Below, in pieces: positions 1,570 through 11,690 of a stretch of DNA of 64,000 nt. Origin of the DNA: a virus; the IMG/VR virus record IMGVR_UViG_3300017917_002918, positions 1 to 64,000 of that record. One strand, 5' to 3'. The translations under genes and the position numbers were made by a program. Position 1 is the stretch's first letter. Each line of letters opens with the position of its first letter. Below the pieces are notes generated by a model, which was not told the DNA's origin, made no database searches, and worked only from the letters and a program-made list of their open reading frames with translations.

Positions 1570-1658
1570 ATTATAATTTTATAAAAAATAAAAGGAATGT
1601 TTTATTTGGATCATTCCTTTGTTGTTTTATCCATAAACAGAGAGGAGTGATTATTACA

Positions 1659-3472
1659 ATGGCTGAAATACCAAACATTATTGTCGGTGTCAAACTGGAC
1701 ACTTCAAATATAGGTAAACAAGTAGAAGAAATTAGTAAGAAATTTGAAACGAAACCTATTAAGTTAGGTTTTGAATTTAAATTAACAAATGATAATATAA
1801 AACAACAAATGAAAGTCATACAAGACAAATTCGACAATGCAAAAATTAATACAAACATAACTGTTGGTATTAAAGTAGATAGTCGTATTGGCGATATAAA
1901 TAGACAAATTAACCAATTATCAAAACAAATAACCGAGCAATTAAGTGTTAAATTAAAAATAGATGCCAGTGATTTAAATATAATCACTGAAAAAACCAAG
2001 CGAGTCCAAGAACAAGTTCAAATTGCTATGTCACAAAAAAATGTAAAACAAACACCTATATCATATTCTTCTCGTGAATACGAAAGCAGTCTCTTGGGTA
2101 CAAAGAAATCAGATATAGACAAGGCTTTGGATGATGTAATTTCCTCATACAAAGGTAAATTAAGTGACATAAAAGTAAATTTAAATGAAAGCTTGGACAT
2201 TGGTTCAGTAGTTGTTAAATACAAAGATTCAACAGGTAAAATGATTCAAGAAACTATGAAATGGGTGGATGTTGTCGAAGGACAATCCAATAAAGCAAAA
2301 AAAGCATTCAAAACAGTAAGCACCCAAATTGTAGATGACATGAGAAAAGAAGAACAACAAAAAGAAGCAATTCGCAAAAGAGAAGAACAAGAACTTGCGT
2401 CAAGGCAGAAACGTATTGATAAGTTCAAAGATTCTACTTTAAACAGAATTAGTGAAATGGAATCAAAAGATTATAAATACGCTAATCAATTGCGATTTGT
2501 AACCCCAACGAGCCAAGGTAATGTCGAATTAAAAAAAATTAGAAGTGTTGTTGAGGCATTAAATGCATCTACCATATCTTCTAAACAATTCGATAAAGAA
2601 ATTAAAAATATAACAAATAGTATTGATAAGCTTGAAAATAAAGCAATTAAACTTTATAAAGAAATAGATCAAGAGGCTAAAAACGCCACTAGAGGTATAA
2701 AGGCAAGTTTTTCAATAACTCCATTGGGTGATTATAGTACTCCAGGGAAAAAAGCTGGTATACAAAATCCCGCCTCTTTTGAGAAATCAACGGAAGCCAC
2801 AAGAAAATATTTACAATTAATATCACAATTCTCAGGAAAAAAACTCGATTTTGGCATTTTTGAAAGTCAATTCTCTTCGAAACAAATGAAAGAGACTGGT
2901 CAATTGATGACTAACATTGGCGTAAGAGTTTGGCATACAAAAAAAAGATATGAAGATTTAACAGTAAGTTTAAATGATTCTGATAAGTCCTTTAGATATT
3001 TGTCAAAAAGTATAAAAAATGCAGGTTTAAAAGACTTAAACTTTTCAGGGCAATTTATTGAAAACTTAAAGAAATTCCCAATATGGCTAGGTACTGCAAC
3101 AATTGTTATGCAAGGGTTGGCGTTATTTAGAACGGGTGCACAATACATATATGAGATGGATAAAGCATTAACCGATTTGACTAAAGTTGTTGACTTGAGT
3201 ATACCACAAATGCATGAAATGACTAATGCTGCGGTTGCTATGGGTAACGCATACGGTAAATCATCTGTAGAGATAATGAAGTCTATGGCTGAGTTTGGTC
3301 GTGTAACAAAGAATACTGATGAGATTAAGAAATTAACTGAATCTGCTACATTAGCGTCAAATGTAACAACAATGACTGCTGACGTTGCAGCTAAAGCATT
3401 GAATACAACTATGATGGCATTTAAAATAAATGCTAAAGATTCGATGGGAATAGTTGACAAATGGAATGAGTT
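1659..3472 (+). CDS. Tail tape measure protein, exon 1
   Basis: Coiled-coil region followed by a TP901-type TMP core ending DKWNE; RBS GAGGAG precedes ATG 1659; the frame continues in exon 2 after intron removal. Confidence 0.85.
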
Positions 3473-3740
3473 AAAGTTCTCCATAAGTGACTCCTTATAC
3501 AGTAATGTATATGTAAAATGCTAGAGTATCGGAAAAACTCTGTTATTATACAGACAATTCCGAGGTAAACCCTTATTCAAGGGAAACCGTAACGACTGCA
3601 ATTAGCTACCCTACAAAAGAGGGTAAAGGTACAGTCTGAACATCGTAAGCGATTACGAGAAACGGCAGAAATGACCGTTCGCCATAGTACATATGGTCTG
3701 TAACTTAAATTACATATTTAGGTGAAAGTAACAGAATTTG
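3473..3740 (+). ncRNA. Group I intron 1 in the tape measure gene (no ORF)
   Basis: P7 GACTG 3594-3598 pairs with CAGTC 3632-3636; P4-type TCGGAA/TTCCGA; terminal G3740. Removal gives DKWNEL|QNNYRVSSEDLA. The 5' site is uncertain by about 1 nt because P1 is imperfect. Confidence 0.85.
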
Positions 3741-3901
3741 GCAAAACAACTATAGGGTCTCAAGCGAAGATTTAGCAGATTCAATAGGTATTACAGGTAA
3801 CGTTGCACAACAAACTGGAATGTCATTTGAAAAATTAAATGCCATCACAACTGCAATGATCGCAACTACGGGAGCTACGGGAAGTGAAGCGGGAACGGCA
3901 T
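3741..3901 (+). CDS. Tail tape measure protein, exon 2
   Basis: Reads QNNYRVSSEDLADSIGITGNVAQQTGMSFEKLNAITTAMIATTGATGSEAGTA, a typical TMP core; missing from the ORF track. Confidence 0.9.
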
Positions 3902-4203
3902 ATTTCTGTGCCATAACAGCATAATACATAAACTGTTATTCAAAATTTATTCTAATATACGGTGAAACCCTAGCGATAGGCAACACCTTCCAATTTTTAA
4001 TGTTAATTAAAAAGGGAACAACGACTGAACGAATAAACCACATTTATGATGTGGATGCGACAGTCTGAACTTACGCTATAATCTAAAAATGAAACGTAAG
4101 AGTTAGAGTCAAGTGTAACCAGACACTTATTGAAGAACTCTAACCGCCATGTAGCAATATATGGTCAGTAGTCTAATGTAAATTAGATGAAAGTAACAGA
4201 ATG
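3902..4203 (+). ncRNA. Group I intron 2 in the tape measure gene (no ORF)
   Basis: P1 GGCAU/GUGCC with U.G at the splice site; P3 TTTATTC/GAATAAA; P7 GACTG 4023-4027 / CAGTC 4061-4065; terminal G4203. Removal gives GTAL|KSTLSRL. Confidence 0.92.
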
Positions 4204-4415
4204 TAAAATCAACACTTTCAAGACTTTTCCGTATTGGCGAAGAAGGGGCAGACGATGCAGGTAAATCGGAAGAAGCTTTAAACAAACTAGGCATATCTGT
4301 CAGAAAAAACGCAACAGAGTTTCGTAATGCTTCTGACATAGTAGATGATTTGGCTAAAAGATTCAAAACTATGACATCTGTTGAACAAATAGCAATAGCA
4401 CAACAACTTGCGGGT
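4204..4415 (+). CDS. Tail tape measure protein, exon 3
   Basis: Reads (L)KSTLSRLFRIGEEGADDAGKSEEALNKLGISVRK...IAIAQQLAG, in frame with exons 2 and 4. Confidence 0.9.
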
Positions 4416-5062
4416 TAATAATATGGCTCGAAAATACAGTAATGTATCGTTGAAGTTGGCTTTTATCGGGAAACACGTAGACATACGCAATTCCGAGGAT
4501 AAGACTTGATGAATAATCAAGAATCCGTAACGAGTCAGTGATTGTAACAGCAATGTTATGATCCACGCCAACCCCCTATATAATAGGGAGTGACCAATAT
4601 TTGCTAATTATATGGTCAAATATACTCATATATAAGCAAACGTAAAGCTCCGCATATAGAGAAATCTGTATGTAGAAATAGATGACGTATAACAATCTAT
4701 TCAATATCTCAACAACTGCTGGCAATCCCTAAAGCTAACTAAACCACAACGTAAGTATGAAACAAGACTAAGCGTGAGGGTGACGAAAGTAGAAAAAATT
4801 AGTTAGATAGTGCATGGTTAAATCCTAAACACTGTAATAATGGGTCTTCAGCAACATATGTCCGAACAGGATACTGCTCAACGACTATCCCTCTTGAGGG
4901 GAGTAGAGTCAAGCGACTCGAAATGAGAGACTCCAGAAATGGATGATGATATAGTCTGTGCTCATATGAAAGTATGAGAAGTTCATAAGAGAACTGGTGT
5001 AGATTAGCGACCTACATTGAACACGCTAAAAATATATCAAATGTGTATATTTTTATTTATTC

Positions 5063-5092
5063 AAAAAACATCAAGAATTATTCTTGATGTTT
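5063..5092 (-). terminator. Intrinsic terminator of the RHH transcript
   Basis: Inverted repeat ACATCAAGAA/TTCTTGATGT; a U-run follows only on the minus strand. Confidence 0.6.
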
Positions 5093-5236
5093 GGATGCAA
5101 AGTCTTTAAGAACAGTAATTATTAAATTATTAAAACTTCGATTTTGCTCTTTAGCTATTTGTTCTAATTGTTGTTTTAGTTCTTTTGAAATTGTAATATT
5201 GGTGCGTGTGTTGTGTTCAGCTACATTACCTGCCAT
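5078..5236 (-). CDS. Ribbon-helix-helix (Arc/CopG-like) protein, 52 aa, inside the IStron
   Basis: MAGNVAEHNTRTNITISKELKQQLEQIAKEQNRSFNNLIITVLKDF...; RBS AAGGAGG; upstream TTGACT-17-TATAAT on the minus strand; below the ORF-track cutoff. Confidence 0.8.
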   Translation of the reverse strand: MAGNVAEHNTRTNITISKELKQQLEQIAKEQNRSFNNLIITVLKDFASKHQE

Positions 5237-5302
5237 AACAATCCCTCCTTTTAAAATTATTATATCATATTAACACATTGTAGTCAATTAGATCCCAAAC
5301 TA

Positions 5303-5334
5303 TTGACAAACTGATTACAGTATGGTATGATAAT
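5303..5334 (+). promoter_or_regulatory. SigA-type promoter of tnpB, divergent from the RHH promoter
   Basis: TTGACA at 5303 followed by TGGTATGATAAT. Confidence 0.65.
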
Positions 5335-5357
5335 GTTAGAAAGTGAGGTGAGAAAAT

Positions 5358-6509
5358 ATGATTAAAGGAATCACAATTAGACTACACCCAGATGAAAAAC
5401 AAGAACAATTATTATGGAAACATGTTAACTGTGCTAGATTTGTTTGGAATTATGGTTTGCGATTACAACAAGAAAGATTCAAAAATAAGGAAAAACATCT
5501 AAGTGGATATGATTTGAGAAAAGAAATTATAGCCTTGAAGAAAACAGATGATTTTATATGGCTAAATGAGATTTCAAGTCATACAACATTTAATATTTGC
5601 TTAGACTTAGATGGTGCTTATGGTAGATTTTTCAAAAAGGTAACTGGCAAACCAAAATTCAAAAAGAAAAACAGGTGCAAAAATAGTTTCCCAGTAAGAC
5701 AAGATAATTTGTATTTTAAAAATAATTGTGCTGTAGTTGAAAAAATCGGTAAAATCAAATATCAATCGGACTATAAAATACCACAAGGCAGGTTTGTTTA
5801 TAAGTTTAGTAATCCAAGAATTAAGTTTGAGAACAACAAATGGATTATGACGATTGGTATGGAGTACGAGAACCAAGTACATAATTTAACCGATAAGAAA
5901 ATGGGAATAGATTTAGGAGTAAAAGAATTAGCTGTAGTATCCTTTGGAACTGAAAATATAGTTTTTAAAAATATCAATAAGACAAAGAGAGTTAAAACCT
6001 TAAAACATAAACTTAAACATCTACAGAAAGATGTTAATAGAAAATATGAAACCAATAATAAAAACAAGGTTTATGATAAAAAGTGGTCTAAGTCTAATGG
6101 TATAAAAAAACTAGAAAATCAGATAAAGGATATACATTGTAAACTATCAAATATTCGTAAGAACCACATTCATCAAAGCACTAATAGTCTCGTCAAGTTA
6201 TTGCCATATAAGATAACAATGGAAGACTTAAATATTAGTGGAATGATGAAAAACAGGCATCTATCTAAAGCAATAGCAGAACAATGTTTATATGAGTTCA
6301 CAAGACAAATTAAATATAAATGTGAATTTAATGGTATAGAATTTGTGCAAGTAGACAGATTTTATCCATCAAGTAAAACATGCTCTTGTTGTGGAAGCTT
6401 AAAGAAGGACTTAAAGCTAAAAGATAGAGTTTATAAGTGCAATTGTGGATTAGAAATTGATAGAGATTATAATGCGGCTATTAATTTAATGAATTATTCA
6501 AACGTTTGA
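5358..6509 (+). CDS. tnpB: TnpB RNA-guided endonuclease (IS607/IS605 OrfB)
   Basis: N-terminal HTH (IRLHP..EQ..L...ARFVWN); RuvC motifs GIDLG, MEDL and DRDYNAA; Zn finger CSCCG..CNCG; catalytic D/E/D intact. Confidence 0.95.
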   Translation: MIKGITIRLHPDEKQEQLLWKHVNCARFVWNYGLRLQQERFKNKEKHLSGYDLRKEIIALKKTDDFIWLNEISSHTTFNICLDLDGAYGRFFKKVTGKPKFKKKNRCKNSFPVRQDNLYFKNNCAVVEKIGKIKYQSDYKIPQGRFVYKFSNPRIKFENNKWIMTIGMEYENQVHNLTDKKMGIDLGVKELAVVSFGTENIVFKNINKTKRVKTLKHKLKHLQKDVNRKYETNNKNKVYDKKWSKSNGIKKLENQIKDIHCKLSNIRKNHIHQSTNSLVKLLPYKITMEDLNISGMMKNRHLSKAIAEQCLYEFTRQIKYKCEFNGIEFVQVDRFYPSSKTCSCCGSLKKDLKLKDRVYKCNCGLEIDRDYNAAINLMNYSNV

Positions 6510-6680
6510 AATATTGAGAGACGTTTGTCTTAGGGAAATTGGTGTATCCTTGAATGTTGCGGAGTGTTATATCAAATGAAAGTAGGTTTAACCGAAATCA
6601 GACACTATGAAACAACGAATAAATAAAAATGTACCCAAATGTGTATATTTTTAGCATCAGAAGATGGACTCTGAACTACA
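6510..6680 (+). ncRNA. Putative omegaRNA: element right end plus a guide from the flanking outer-intron sequence
   Basis: About 150 nt between the tnpB stop and the element end at 6660; by the established TnpB rule the guide is the 3' flank AAGATGGACTCTGAAC... Confidence 0.6.
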
Positions 6681-6779
6681 CTATAATGTAAACAAGAAGG
6701 TGTAGAAGTGGCAGAAATGACCACTCGCCATAATGCTTATGGTCTGTAACTTTGGTAACAAAGTGAAAGTAACAGAATG

Positions 6780-9700
6780 ACATACCATTACTCCAAGCTA
6801 ATCGGTGTACTTAACAATTATGATGTTGCACTAGAAGCAAATAAAATGCAATTACACTCACAAGGTTCTGCTTATTCCGAGAACCAGAAAAGAATGGATT
6901 CATTTGAGGGCAGGTTGGGAAAACTTAAAACAACTGTAGAAAGTTTCTGGAATTCTTCTATTAATTCAGACCTATTCAAAGGCATGATTTCTGGTTTAAC
7001 TGTTTTAATAGATAAGTTCGGTAATCTTGGGACTGTGTTATCGTTGATAGGCACTGGTTTAGCTCTTTGGAAAGGAAATGAAATTTTAAGTTTCTTCAAA
7101 ACCCTTCCTGCTTCAATTTCAACATCTATTAAAGAGATGACATTGTTTAAAAACATTGCTCTTGCCATGGAATTACGAGAATTGGGATTATTGACAACCA
7201 CTCAGCTATTAAGTAGTAGTTTCAAAGCTTTAGGTATTTCTATAAAAAATGCATTCTTATCTAATCCATTAGGCTGGATTGCAATGGGTTTTACGGCTGT
7301 TACAATGGCAGTGGATATGTTTGGTCAAAAAGCTGAAGAATCTAAGCAACAAATCAAGGATAGTATAGAAGCATATAAATCACTAAATACCGAAGTAGAT
7401 TCGCTTACTGCAACATACATAGAGATTGGAGATAAGTGGAAGACTGATAATGACGAAAAGAAAAAATTAATTGAAACAGAGACTAGACTCAAAGAGATAT
7501 TCGGAGAATCTGCAAAAGCATTAAATTTACAGACCGGAACAGTTGATGATAATATAAAGAAGTTTAAAGAACTAAAAGCGATTAAAGATGCTGAATTTTT
7601 GTTAGAAAACAAAACAAAAATAAACAATGCGAAAGATAGACTTTCGAGCTACAAGTCTGAGAGCTTTTTCTCGGATTCTCCAGCCGACACTTTGAATTTA
7701 GCTCCCGAGTTGTTAGGAAAAATATTTGCGGGCAATCCAAAACAAGTTTTAGCTCAATTAGAATCAGAATTAGCGTTGTTGGGAAAGAGACTTGACGAAG
7801 TTAAAGCAAAGGGAACTCCATTCGATGTGAACCAATACTCGTATTCTTTTGACTTAGTTAATGCCAAAATAAAAGAATATAAAGAAAATATCAAACCTGA
7901 TACCGATTTACTGGAACAGGCAGATCAAAAAGAAAAAGCTATTGCAGAAACTAAAATACTAAATCTTGATAAATTAAATGAAAAACAAACAGCAGTATAT
8001 ACTAATTTAAAAAATTTTGTAAAGTATAGTAATGCAGATCAATATCAAAAAGACTTACAACAAGTTCAGGTTATACTCTCTAGTTTTGATGGTAAAAATG
8101 TAGCAGAGGTTGAGCAACAACTTAGAGCAATAGCAAACTTACCAAATAAAGACATAGAAACAGTAATGAAATCTCTTGCCGATGGTACTTATAAATCTGG
8201 TAAATCTGCCGAAGAATCAAAAAAGGCAGAAGAAGAATTAAATAAAACAATATCAAATTCAATTAACAACATACAAACATTAAACTCTGCGCAGGATGAA
8301 TTAAATGAGAATCATAAGTTATCTACACAAACATTAGAATCAGTTGCAAATAAGTACCCTGAACTGTTGGCTTATATGAATGACGAAGTTCTGATGAGTC
8401 AAAAAATCCAAGAAAAAATAAAACAAGAAAAAGATGATTATGTTGATGCTAGTTATAAAAAAATAGAATCTAACCAAAGTTTTTTTGATAATGTCATCAA
8501 AAACGACAAAGAACTGTGGAGTACTTTAAGTGATGCTTATGGGGATGATTTAAAAAACTTTAAGTCATTAGAGGATGCAAAATTAGAGATAGATAACGAA
8601 ATATCTGCACAAATACTTACTAATTGGATGCAATTAGATGCAACGACAAAAGAAATAATGAGAACCAACATTGACCTGTTGGGGGAAGCGTTAGGATCAG
8701 ATGTCCCTAATGGGCAAGATTCATACGATTTGGCAATGAAAGCATCTACTGGAATGATGAAGGCTGGAGCAACAGAAGATGATGTCGCAAAGGCTGTCGA
8801 TAGTGGAGCTGCTTTAAAAGTAAATAAAATGAAAAAGGCACTCGATACCGCTAAAGCAAAAACAGATGAAATTTTTAGAAATGCTAATTTTGGAGACGGT
8901 AGAAAAAGTAGTGGTTCTACTAGTGCTGGTTCTTCTTCCCCAGCCATCAATGAAGAGGTATACAAAGTAGAAAAAGACCGTTACATGGGTTTAAATCAAG
9001 TTTTAACCTCAGTTAATAATTCGTTAGAAAAGAATCAAGCATTACAGAAAAATGCTACTATTGAAGAACGCGTTAAGTTAATAGCAGAAGAAATTGAACT
9101 GCTACGACAAAAACGCAAAGCTATTAATGACATTGCATGGGAACAAAGTCAGGAAGCAAAAGAGAAAAAGGCTTACCTTGAAAAGAATAATGTTAAATTT
9201 GATCAAAACGGTAACATTGACAAGGCATCCTACGACAGTGTAATTGACTCTATAGCCAACAACACAGAATCAATGAAACGTAAGGGTAATGCTACAAAAA
9301 TTGCTGAAAATAATCAACTCTTGAAAAATCTAGAACAGGCTAATAAAGATTACTTGAGTGCTACTGCTAATGCTGCAAAGAGTATCAATGAACGTGAAAG
9401 TTTAACTGGTGATATATTCGCTAAGCAAAATGATAAGACTAAAGCCGAGATAGAATCCGTACTTGCACCACTAGGGGAACACTTAACTGATTTGAATGAT
9501 CAGTTAACAGGACTGCAAAGTAAATATGATCTATTGGGTGAAAGTGAATTCGATTCAAAGATTGAGAATATTAATAAGCAAATAGTTAATCAAAAACTTG
9601 CATTAATTGATACTGATAAAGCGTTGTCTGAGCTAAGAGCTAAATACAATAAACAAGATACCAATGCCATTGAAAAAAAGGAAATACTAAAAGAAATTGT

Positions 9701-11690
9701 AAAGCTTGAAAATGATAGCCTTAGTATAAAAAAAACAATGGTTGCATTAGGTGATAAGCGAGCGGATCAGTTAAAAGAAGATACAGAAAAGGCACTTAAT
9801 GAAAAAGATTTAGCCATTGAGAAAATTGGAGAAATAGAAACAGAAGGTCAAATTGCAAAAAAAATTAGTTTAATCAAAGAAAAGATATCTGCGAGAACTG
9901 GTTATATAGATGAAGTAAATGCATATACGAAACGATTGGAATACAACAAAGAAAATGAAAAGTCAGATATATTTGTTTCACAAAACTCTACGGGCGCAAA
10001 ATATTTAAAAGAACTTCCAGCTATGCAAAAAGCAAATGCTAATGATTTAAAAGAAATTAATACTTTAAATCTTGAACTTGCTAAGAAACAAGTTGAAAAG
10101 TTCGATCTTGCCCTTGAAGAATTAAGTGCTACTACCAGTAAGTTTAAAGAAGAGTTGGACTTCTTAAAAGAATGGCAACCACAGAACTTTGAATCTATAA
10201 ACACATTGATTAGTGGTGTAATCACTAATACTCAGGCAGAAATTAATCAATTAAAGACTATGGAAACTTCCTATATCGCCAAACGTGATCAAGCTAGACA
10301 AGATGGTGACATAGAATCTTTTAAATTGTTTGATGACTTGTTGAAAAAGACATATCAAAATGAACAAAATAAGATCATGGAAAACGCCAAGTTGAAGAAG
10401 GAACAACTTCAAAACTCATTCTCTGAGCAGAATAGAAACATTGAAAAATTGCTATTTGGTGATTCTTCGCAAAAAGCAGAGCAAGATAGAATCAATTCAT
10501 TAAAAAAAGAACAAGACACCTACATTTCTGGCGAAGAAAAAGTGTATGCGTTAAATTTAATGCGAACGGAACTCAATAAATACAATAGTGACATACAGAA
10601 TAAAAAGATAACAATATATGATGCAGAATTAGATAGACTAGAAAAAATTGATAAAATAACTCGTGATGATCTAGATACTTTGAAGAAGAAAATTGAAATA
10701 AAACAACTTGAGTTAAAATTAGATAATTTGAGAGAAGAAAAGACAATTAAGGTTTTAAGAAAGCAAGCTGATGGTAAGTATGCTTGGAAATTTGAAGCAG
10801 ATCAAGGTGCAATCAACGAAACAGAGAGTCAACTAGCTTCTAGTAGAATCGATCTAATTAAAACTCAAAAAGACAAAAGTATCAAAGCACAAGAGGATGA
10901 TCTTAATCAAAAAATTGATTATATGAACGAAGTTAAGGAAATACAACAAAAAGCCTTAAACGGTGAATACAAAACGCAGGAAGAGTTCACGGCTGACATG
11001 ACTAGAGTTAATGGTAAATTAAGTACGAATTATAAAAATATGTGGTTTGGTATAACTTCAACTCAAGCAAATGCTTCTGTTCTAATGAATGATTATCAAA
11101 GTAATATTGTAACTTCTTATGCTACATTTACAACTAGCATGAAAGAACTTTCGGCTAGCTTATCTGAATCTGTACAGAATTCTGCAAACGCATTACTTAA
11201 TTCTGTTGCACAATTAGAAGAACTGGCTAGACGTGCTGAGGCTGCAAGGGCTACGATTACTGGTCAGGCTATGGTATCATTCACAGGAGGTTCTATAAAA
11301 AATGGCGTTCCTCAACCAGAAAATAGACCCTCTTCTAGTGCAAATATAAACACAACACTTAAAAATGCATGGACTAACATACAGGGTTATCATGCTGACG
11401 GGATAGAATCAGGAGCGGTAACTAAAAATGGAACATATATGTTACATGGATCTGAGTCTTCTCCTGAATGGGTGTTAACAACAGAACAAATGAAAACATT
11501 TATACGAAATATGGCTTCTAAAGCTTCATCTTCATTTACGATCAAGAAACCATTAGCACCTTCATTTTATAATAGTGGTGATACTTCCAATGTTAAATCT
11601 GAAGTGTACAGTTTTAACATTGATACAATTCAGACCAATGATGTTACTAACTTAATTAATAGTATGAAAAGAAAGATTAGATCTAATTAA
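6780..11690 (+). CDS. Tail tape measure protein, exon 4
   Basis: TMP core continuation, hydrophobic segments (NPLGWIA), long coiled coil, C-terminal HGS...PEWVLT motif. The four exons total 7098 nt from ATG 1659 (2365 aa). Confidence 0.92.
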   Translation, partial: TYHYSKLIGVLNNYDVALEANKMQLHSQGSAYSENQKRMDSFEGRLGKLKTTVESFWNSSINSDLFKGMISGLTVLIDKFGNLGTVLSLIGTGLALWKGNEILSFFKTLPASISTSIKEMTLFKNIALAMELRELGLLTTTQLLSSSFKALGISIKNAFLSNPLGWIAMGFTAVTMAVDMFGQKAEESKQQIKDSIEAYKSLNTEVDSLTATYIEIGDKWKTDNDEKKKLIETETRLKEIFGESAKALNLQTGTVDDNIKKFKELKAIKDAEFLLENKTKINNAKDRLSSYKSESFFSDSPADTLNLAPELLGKIFAGNPKQVLAQLESELALLGKRLDEVKAKGTPFDVNQYSYSFDLVNAKIKEYKENIKPDTDLLEQADQKEKAIAETKILNLDKLNEKQTAVYTNLKNFVKYSNADQYQKDLQQVQVILSSFDGKNVAEVEQQLRAIANLPNKDIETVMKSLADGTYKSGKSAEESKKAEEELNKTISNSINNIQTLNSAQDELNENHKLSTQTLESVANKYPELLAYMNDEVLMSQKIQEKIKQEKDDYVDASYKKIESNQSFFDNVIKNDKELWSTLSDAYGDDLKNFKSLEDAKLEIDNEISAQILTNWMQLDATTKEIMRTNIDLLGEALGSDVPNGQDSYDLAMKASTGMMKAGATEDDVAKAVDSGAALKVNKMKKALDTAKAKTDEIFRNANFGDGRKSSGSTSAGSSSPAINEEVYKVEKDRYMGLNQVLTSVNNSLEKNQALQKNATIEERVKLIAEEIELLRQKRKAINDIAWEQSQEAKEKKAYLEKNNVKFDQNGNIDKASYDSVIDSIANNTESMKRKGNATKIAENNQLLKNLEQANKDYLSATANAAKSINERESLTGDIFAKQNDKTKAEIESVLAPLGEHLTDLNDQLTGLQSKYDLLGESEFDSKIENINKQIVNQKLALIDTDKALSELRAKYNKQDTNAIEKKEILKEIVKLENDSLSIKKTMVALGDKRADQLKEDTEKALNEKDLAIEKIGEIETEGQIAKKISLIKEKISARTGYIDEVNAYTKRLEYNKENEKSDIFVSQNSTGAKYLKELPAMQKANANDLKEINTLNLELAKKQVEKFDLALEELSATTSKFKEELDFLKEWQPQNFESINTLISGVITNTQAEINQLKTMETSYIAKRDQARQDGDIESFKLFDDLLKKTYQNEQNKIMENAKLKKEQLQNSFSEQNRNIEKLLFGDSSQKAEQDRINSLKKEQDTYISGEEKVYALNLMRTELNKYNSDIQNKKITIYDAELDRLEKIDKITRDDLDTLKKKIEIKQLELKLDNLREEKTIKVLRKQADGKYAWKFEADQGAINETESQLASSRIDLIKTQKDKSIKAQEDDLNQKIDYMNEVKEIQQKALNGEYKTQEEFTADMTRVNGKLSTNYKNMWFGITSTQANASVLMNDYQSNIVTSYATFTTSMKELSASLSESVQNSANALLNSVAQLEELARRAEAARATITGQAMVSFTGGSIKNGVPQPENRPSSSANINTTLKNAWTNIQGYHADGIESGAVTKNGTYMLHGSESSPEWVLTTEQMKTFIRNMASKASSSFTIKKPLAPSFYNSGDTSNVKSEVYSFNIDTIQTNDVTNLINSMKRKIRSN

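Follow-up and report, generated by a model that had tools for sequence, protein, structure and literature searches.

The tape-measure gene of the virus represented by IMG/VR record IMGVR_UViG_3300017917_002918 contains what is probably a twintron, in which an IStron, a transposon-intron chimera with the RNA-guided nuclease TnpB, is nested in the core of another group I intron and the two would be spliced in two steps. The window analysed here is the first 64 kilobases (kb; 64,000 nucleotides, nt) of this 167,401-base-pair (bp) record, which has direct terminal repeats. By the original definition of a twintron, the external intron is reconstituted once the internal one has been taken out (PMC8393795). 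Here one intron lies inside another, and a sequence-only reading of this DNA had already proposed a TnpB-bearing IStron nested in a group I core. The proposal is supported by uninterrupted relatives of the outer intron, by inner homologues, likewise uninterrupted, elsewhere and by ends that the inner element shares with independent insertions. The gene, its introns and the insert are laid out as follows.

3473-3740, plus strand: sibling group I intron 1, 268 nt, without an open reading frame (ORF); Rfam Intron_gpI match; the exon join restores PhageMin_Tail 85/86
3902-4203, plus strand: sibling group I intron 2, 302 nt, without an ORF; partial Rfam match; the join restores PhageMin_Tail 137/138
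4204-4415, plus strand: tape-measure exon 3, ending ...AIAQQLAG; PhageMin_Tail 137-201; collinear with the homologues P0002, P0004 and P0005
4416-4590, plus strand: outer intron 3, 5' segment, helices P1 to P8; homologous to intron 1 and to L085, L072 and L065
4591-6660, plus strand: inner element, an IStron without tnpA, 2070 nt, after GGAG; placed by end homology to independent insertions
6661-6779, plus strand: outer intron 3, 3' segment, with J8/7 AAGAUG at 6661-6666 and the terminal G6779; collinear with L085
6780-11690, plus strand: tape-measure exon 4, starting TYHYSKLIGV...; in frame with exon 3; in one ORF in the homologues

Three related group I introns (3473-3740, 3902-4203 and 4416-6779) interrupt the tape-measure gene, and the Pfam domain PhageMin_Tail is divided among three open stretches (profile positions 2-85, 86-138 and 137-201). 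Manual reading of the junctions gave exons at 1647-3472, 3741-3901, 4204-4415 and 6780-11690, which join in frame into 7110 nt encoding 2369 amino acids (aa) with no internal stop. No gap opens at any of the three junctions when the product is aligned to its homologues P0002, P0004 and P0005, each of which runs through the region of the exon 3/exon 4 junction in one unsplit ORF; at that junction ...AIAQQLAG|TYHYSKLIGVLNNY pairs in the alignment with ...ALAGMYQRNRLITLLDNY of a homologue. Removal of outer intron 3 thus restores the host gene, with an in-frame product collinear with unsplit homologues, and the outer intron limits proposed earlier, 4416 and 6779, stand.

Outer intron 3 itself is a ribozyme of 294 nt without an ORF, divided by the 2070-nt insert at 4591-6660 and thereby extended to 2364 nt in all. 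Helices P1 (4411-4416/4425-4430), P2, P3 (4456-4460/4567-4571), P4, P5 and P6a are complementary throughout; P8 (4572-4578/4584-4590, placed by homology) has one mismatch, C4573.A4589, P9 lies at 6676-6681/6700-6705 with distal hairpins beyond, and a P7.1 hairpin is found in the 5' segment. As expected of a group I intron, U4415 pairs with a G in P1 and a G (G6779) is the terminal base. The two P7 strands, GAGTC at 4532-4536 and GACTC at 6667-6671, had been noted to lie 2.1 kb apart, and they prove complementary at all five positions. Plain folding of the in-silico outer join recovers the main helices. In both siblings the P7 pair is GACUG/CAGUC, compared with GAGUC/GACUC here, so that two base pairs whose strands lie 2.1 kb apart have each changed on both sides in a compensatory way. 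The wider family has six different complementary P7 combinations, and P3, P5, P7 and P9 show compensatory changes relative to intron 1, L085 and others.

Each half of the outer intron can also be matched to the siblings. Aligned to intron 1, the 5' half (4416-4590) scores 42, whereas shuffles score 17.4 +/- 2.9 (z 8.5), and a profile built from introns 1 and 2 alone matches 6667-6778 in a search of the whole genome (E 3e-8), the match beginning at the 3' strand of P7. All three introns share the 3' end GAAAGTAACAGAAT(G) and contain the 3'-end motif GAAAGTAACAGAATG. Rfam intron matches appeared only when short stretches were searched; under these conditions intron 1 aligned to the full Intron_gpI model (45.3 bits, E 3e-10; gathering score 50) and intron 2 matched it partially (20 bits). 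At the gathering threshold RAGATH-18 was the sole Rfam match in the whole window, with no introns, and the same was true in E-value mode on 6.5 kb.

The insertion point was located by comparison with relatives found in pattern scans, both in IMG/VR (L072, L065, L064, L066, L068 and L073) and in JGI metagenomes (L085 and L086). Outer intron 3 belongs to a family that is common in large phages; L085, L086, L072 and L065a have the same core, P7.1 hairpin and P3/P8/J8/7/P7 layout, and L085 and L086 have the same P7 pair, GAGUC/GACUC. Over a 149-nt stretch that crosses 4590|6661 without a gap, the L085 intron (minus strand, about 938-1918; that of L086 is at about 1917-3028) shares 81% identity with the joined outer intron. 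Where L085 reads ...TAGGGTG AAGATG GACTC, the joined intron reads ...TAGGGAG|AAGATG GACTC, and in a wider view ...CCCCTATATTTCGTAGGGTG AAGATG GACTCTGG... corresponds to ...CCCCTATATAATAGGGAG|AAGATG GACTCTGAAC.... The L072 and L065 introns also read straight through the join position. Counting from the 3' strand of P8 to that of P7 gives 17 nt for intron 1, L072 and the 4590|6661 join alike; keeping U4591 would give one base more than the relatives have. By this comparison the insert sits between the last pair of P8 and the 6-nt J8/7 (AAGAUG). The earlier claim that excision would rebuild P8-J8/7-P7 in the outer core is supported, with the qualification that the insert lies at the P8|J8/7 boundary and not inside J8/7. 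In L085 and L086 it is the P6 loop that holds extra sequence, about 1 kb in each (in L085 a 326-aa ORF with a homing-endonuclease-associated repeat); this is the usual peripheral placement, and neither intron is interrupted at P8|J8/7. The L086 intron is in a tape-measure gene, at a different site, near the position of intron 2 in the window phage. The outer-family P6/P7 pattern also retrieved, in IMG/VR, IStron-like units composed of an inner-type intron and a tnpB (L072:9663-10952 and L070:2499-4172; about 32% aa identity); L072 holds a clear outer-family intron as well.

The ends of the inner element are shared with insertions elsewhere. On the right, four independent contexts (L020, L033, L028 and L021) end in ...TTTTT(A/G)GCATCAG and diverge at once, which supports G6660 as the last base, as had been proposed. 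At the left end, (N)GGAG precedes the element in six independent insertions of this subfamily, all with the guide CUCC; members of the CbISt4 subfamily mostly follow GAGG, with the guide CCUC. The first base of the element is U or C, opposite G or A, and a U.G wobble is not conserved there. In a Ruminococcus prophage (L033:2177-4304) the element interrupts the tape-measure coding sequence, and the frame is open only with the junctions GGAG| and CATCAG| (...SMRLRG|AKTELEDAGE, followed by 202 more codons). Experimentally, BcISt1 splices after G, the following U being the first intron base, and this holds for group B IStrons (PMC4227781); IStron splice sites are the transposon ends (bioRxiv 10.1101/2023.11.20.567912). 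In the window, too, the ends coincide with predicted splice sites and the target GGAG pairs with the guide CUCC. Because of the shared ends, the L033 frame, the BcISt1 precedent and the collinearity with relatives, the insert is most likely 4591-6660, with splicing after G4590 and not U4591 and an expected ligation GGGAG|AAGAUG. Of the interval 4592-6660 given in the sequence-only reading, the right end is thus retained and the left end moves one base earlier, and the inner junction GGGAGT|AAGATG gives way to the one indicated by homology.

Two other placements of the left end were rejected. A 5' junction after U4591, the canonical U.G site, would leave an extra base compared with all relatives, could not be used by the members that have C, and conflicts with L033, which needs the G junction. 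The TCAG right end prompted us to consider group A (IS605-type) as well, which would place the insertion after ATTAT (4609-4613). This was rejected, since similarity of the left end to L016, L033 and L036 begins at 4591 and it is GGAG with which the guide pairs. Because AG closes both the flank and the right end, the DNA boundary can be written two bases to the left with the same product. In most of the Ruminococcus prophage loci (L027-L035) a second tnpB element lies within 1.5 kb downstream, and tape-measure genes seem from such comparisons to be a repeated landing place for these elements.

Within these ends we recognised the following parts.

4591-5023, plus strand: inner group I ribozyme core; guide sequence at 4647-4651, P7 and P9 hairpins
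5025-5036 with 6644-6655, plus strand: arms of a 12-bp long-range helix, perfectly complementary, ending four bases before the inner 3' splice site
5078-5236, minus strand: ribbon-helix-helix (RHH; Arc/CopG-like) gene, antisense to the intron; Pfam RHH_5, E 5e-6
5259-5331, no single strand: divergent sigma-70-like promoter pair in the interval between the RHH gene and tnpB; consensus matches only, 11/12 each, with TG extension
5358-6509, plus strand: intact tnpB, 383 aa; Pfam HTH_OrfB_IS605, OrfB_IS605 and Cas12f1-like_TNB
6556-6660, plus strand: omega RNA scaffold and right end; RAGATH-18 at 6556-6618, 61.9 bits (gathering score 44.9); G6660 is the predicted inner 3' splice site
6661-6676, plus strand: predicted TnpB guide/target, corresponding to J8/7 and the P7 3' strand of the outer intron, inferred from the 3'-flank rule

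A second complete ribozyme core with its own P1 and P7 had been claimed for this region, and both helices were found. P1 pairs GGAG(U) at 4587-4591 with (G)CUCC at 4647-4651, and P7 pairs GACUA at 4883-4887 with UAGUC at 4952-4956. In a 521-nt search, Rfam Intron_gpI (RF00028) aligned over the whole model to 4648-4978 with 32.9 bits (E 1e-6), and the score was 26.3 bits in the whole-genome search; the proposed check of the region as a group I core therefore gave a full-model alignment at a score below the gathering value of 50. The inner intron is about 72% identical to that of CbISt4 and 78-82% identical to closer relatives on gut-phage contigs and in the Ruminococcus prophage, with more distant ones in named Clostridia. 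An 18-sequence alignment of inner introns from other contexts gave 91 consensus pairs, 61 of them with compensatory change. When P7 was added as a pseudoknot (alignment A5), 99.3% of cells were paired and 62/91 pairs had double changes, a result matched by none of 500 shuffles and compared with 34-42% in slid controls. The window copy keeps 87 of the 91 consensus pairs, including P3, P4, P6, P7 and P9.

The RHH gene and intact tnpB of the sequence-only reading were confirmed by Pfam (RHH_5 and three tnpB domains). Over its full length the tnpB product can be aligned with PDB 8iaz (E 2e-64) and ISDra2 TnpB, and it has the conserved stretches GIDLG, EDLN and DRD as well as CxxC/CxC pairs. An RHH gene is present at the same place in homologues of the inner element, and such an ORF in IStrons has been described (bioRxiv 10.1101/2023.11.20.567912). 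As in other IStrons, a left-end group I intron and tnpB are combined in one element in the same orientation, with a guide-RNA scaffold in the right end. The scaffold is RAGATH-18, which we take to be the TnpB guide scaffold and which is placed after tnpB in three elements. With the predicted promoters lying back to back, nuclease and guide could be made independently of the tape-measure transcript. The arms of the 12-bp helix bracket the RHH gene, tnpB and the guide-RNA part, and they covary, with U-A in the window and L036 and C-G in L016/L020 and L033. We propose that this helix loops out the coding part and brings the 3' splice site to the core. Each arm also folds locally (5028-5056 and 6625-6654), and these alternative folds fit the competition that has been published between intron folding and guide-RNA folding (bioRxiv 10.1101/2023.11.20.567912).

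The guide used by TnpB is the 3' flank of the IStron right end (bioRxiv 10.1101/2023.11.20.567912), which here would be 6661-6676. This predicted guide is unique in the genome, the sibling intron site differing by 4 mismatches. A 10-nt match to the guide region at 118696, near a second tnpB element, was rejected, as about 0.3 chance matches are expected and it is not adjacent to the end of the element. The nested IStron lacks tnpA and so cannot move on its own. The second element (L002; genome 116536-118585, minus strand, outside the window) is more complete, with an IS607-type serine-recombinase tnpA (MerR-like N-terminus), a 397-aa tnpB and RAGATH-18 (58.5 bits). It begins after GAGG, as CbISt4 does, without a preceding intron, and its last bases are ...GTAACGG. 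Because these ends are unlike those of the nested IStron, it may be unable to mobilise the latter.

The arrangement suggests the following course of events. The IStron would have entered after GGAG, at the end of the 3' strand of outer P8, parting P1-P8 from J8/7, the P7 3' strand, P9 and the outer 3' splice site. Transcription would run through all 2364 nt. The inner guide CUCC would then pair with GGAG(U), unzipping the base of outer P8, and the inner ribozyme would splice after G4590 and at G6660. Ligation would rebuild ...UAGGGAG|AAGAUGGACUC, in which P8, J8/7 and P7 are contiguous, and the outer ribozyme would fold and splice at U4415 and G6779 to give ...LAG|TYHY... and the 2369-aa tape-measure protein. 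The TnpB and guide RNA of the IStron would be programmed against IStron-free copies of the outer intron. In a published system TnpB and guide RNA repress IStron splicing (bioRxiv 10.1101/2023.11.20.567912), and by analogy they would also lower inner splicing here.

The order of the two reactions is suggested by the bases that the two ribozymes share. The bases G4587-G4590 serve inner P1 and also form the end of outer P8, which makes the two helices mutually exclusive; their predicted stabilities are comparable (outer P8 hairpin -6.7 kcal/mol, inner P1 as a free duplex -7.6 kcal/mol). From this overlap and from the position of the insert between P8 and J8/7, we infer that tail-protein synthesis probably needs ordered, inner-first splicing. 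A fuller picture, which is possible and which we offer tentatively, is a two-step ribozyme cascade with a conformational switch, a tape-measure yield set by TnpB, and homing into IStron-free introns. If it is true, the transcript must switch conformation, from inner P1 to outer P8, between the two splicing reactions. Should repression hold here, the amount of tape-measure protein made, and with it the timing or number of tails, would be set by a transposon-encoded RNA-guided nuclease. A guide derived from a ribozyme core (J8/7-P7) would in turn mean homing into IStron-free intron copies of co-infecting phages.

Several points weigh against a twintron spliced in this way. The source is a metagenome-derived virus record and the anatomy was read from DNA alone. 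Neither ribozyme reaches the Rfam gathering score of 50 (inner core 32.9 bits, sibling intron 1 45.3 bits), and the outer halves searched singly gave no Rfam match. There are 4 mispairs in peripheral hairpins of the inner copy of the window, compared with 0-2 in most of the 17 homologues (gapped columns uncounted). Outer P8 competes with inner P1 and forms first in transcription, which could make the inner step slow. An in-frame TAA comes right after exon 3 and an in-frame ATG (6777) before exon 4, as a two-polypeptide reading would have it. Finally, a helix/junction boundary sometimes tolerates extra domains, and the order may thus not be obligatory.

The stop and start codons bear on the possibility, which we regard as unlikely, that the IStron inactivated outer intron 3 and that the tape-measure protein is made as two polypeptides, one of 733 aa ending at TAA 4416-4418 and one of 1637 aa from ATG 6777 (the ORF at 6777-11690), or that the genome is defective. 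The immediate stop, a weak GAAAG 7 nt upstream of ATG 6777, and the fact that the nested arrangement was met only once would suit such an intron. However, ATG and GAAAG lie in the motif GAAAGTAACAGAATG of all three introns, and in intron 2 the ATG is out of frame. All outer helices are still complementary, P7 across 2.1 kb included, the homologues hold the junction region in one ORF, and the inner element appears to retain everything needed for splicing.

It is also improbable that both ribozymes are active in no obligatory order, with the outer ribozyme assembling around the unspliced IStron and removing 2364 nt at once (a "zombie twintron"). Organellar nested introns spliced as a single unit have been described (PMC8393795). 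In the window the insert lies exactly at a helix/junction boundary, outside J8/7, and the 12-bp helix (5025-5036/6644-6655) together with the inner fold would bring its ends together. J8/7, however, is the strand that lines the group I active site, and here a folded ribozyme of >400 nt and a guide-RNA scaffold abut it. Moreover, inner P1 takes bases of outer P8, making the folds mutually exclusive, and in the relatives the endonuclease ORF of roughly 1 kb is found in the P6 loop and never at P8|J8/7. An assembly artefact, in which a repeated element was mis-joined into the intron, is very improbable even for a metagenome assembly with a second tnpB element at 116.5-118.6 kb, because that element is 68-74% identical over short stretches only and too diverged to mislead an assembler, both junctions lie exactly at the family ends, at a GGAG target matching the guide of the element, and joining the flanks gives an intron that is collinear to the base. 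A single ordinary IStron over 4416-6779 with tnpB in a loop was rejected, because the region holds two cores that are both complete and both have relatives that are uninterrupted.

The twintron proposed here combines features that are known separately. IStrons (with RHH genes, in phages, in tape-measure genes), twintrons, group I-in-group I introns and multiple tape-measure introns are each known already. Among group B IStrons we compared CbISt4 of the Clostridium botulinum phages c-st and D-1873, BcISt1 of Bacillus cereus, and CboIStron (PMC4227781; bioRxiv 10.1101/2023.11.20.567912). CbISt4 is the published IStron of c-st and D-1873 (PMC4227781), and its phage-record annotation gives a group I catalytic intron, then a small antisense ORF, then a transposase. 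The nested element resembles this group in the order of group I core, antisense small ORF, tnpB and guide-RNA scaffold, in the absence of tnpA, and in following a G-rich 4-mer to which the guide can pair. It differs in its target and guide (GGAG and CUCC as opposed to GAGG and CCUC), in its right end (TCAG as opposed to CGG), and in that its host sequence is the core of another ribozyme and not coding sequence. The TCAG end is the one reported for group A, so the nested subfamily could belong to IS605 or to IS607.

The Ruminococcus prophage (L027-L035, e.g. GCA_036312685.1) likewise has the element in a tape-measure gene, with a 78% identical intron and with GGAG| and GCATCAG| at its ends, as here. 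There the coding sequence was hit directly and one splicing step restores the frame, whereas in the window phage an intron was hit. Organellar twintrons (Euglena psbF group II; fungal mitochondrial group I-in-group I) are likewise introns within introns (PMC8393795). Their internal introns contain endonuclease or reverse-transcriptase genes or nothing, in contrast to the transposon-intron chimera with an RNA-guided nuclease found in this phage. Up to three group I introns per tape-measure gene occur in Bacillus cereus-group prophages, as here, but neither nesting nor an IStron is reported for them (PMC2504315).

In the literature searched we found no description of an IStron nested in another intron. 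A pattern joining the right end to J8/7-P7 had 0 matches in IMG/VR and 0 in JGI metagenomes, and a 21-base pattern from the outer 3' half found no close relatives. The 16-mer AAGATGGACTCTGAAC had six matches in viral contigs, all by chance and with dissimilar flanks. Megablast/blastn of intron 1 and the region against phage records returned just the CbISt4 match and a 29-nt chance match, and a search of viral contigs with tape-measure exon 4 found no close phage relatives.

IStrons are thought to be harmless at any landing site since they splice out. Here the host is an RNA machine, and harmlessness would hinge on exact religation of a catalytic-core strand. A TnpB guide corresponding to ribozyme core sequence would extend the known picture of guides. 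If the twintron is real, it offers a compact natural system, in which two protein-independent ribozymes occupy 2.4 kb, for ordered folding and splicing of nested ribozymes; the interest is mainly for specialists, as a testable natural cascade. It also illustrates the extent to which mobile elements can be layered in an essential structural gene that already has three introns, in a genome with further group I introns. Few copies of the tape-measure protein are needed per virion, and this low need may explain why the gene tolerates inefficient multi-step splicing.

A tape-measure homologue (P0003, 42% identical) is also split, at L015:3003-3314. The 310-nt gap resembles intron 2 of the window (about 75% over two 50-nt blocks) and, by this resemblance, probably represents a further group I intron, at a site of its own. 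Directly upstream of the tape-measure gene, at 523-1569, the window has a tyrosine-integrase-family gene (Pfam Phage_integrase and SAM-like N-terminal domains), an unusual neighbour of a tail gene. Outside the window, more group I introns are found at genome 162153-162344 and 162468-162719 (Rfam 29.9 and 50.1 bits), and part of the inner IStron core has a counterpart of 75% similarity at genome 162069-162175.

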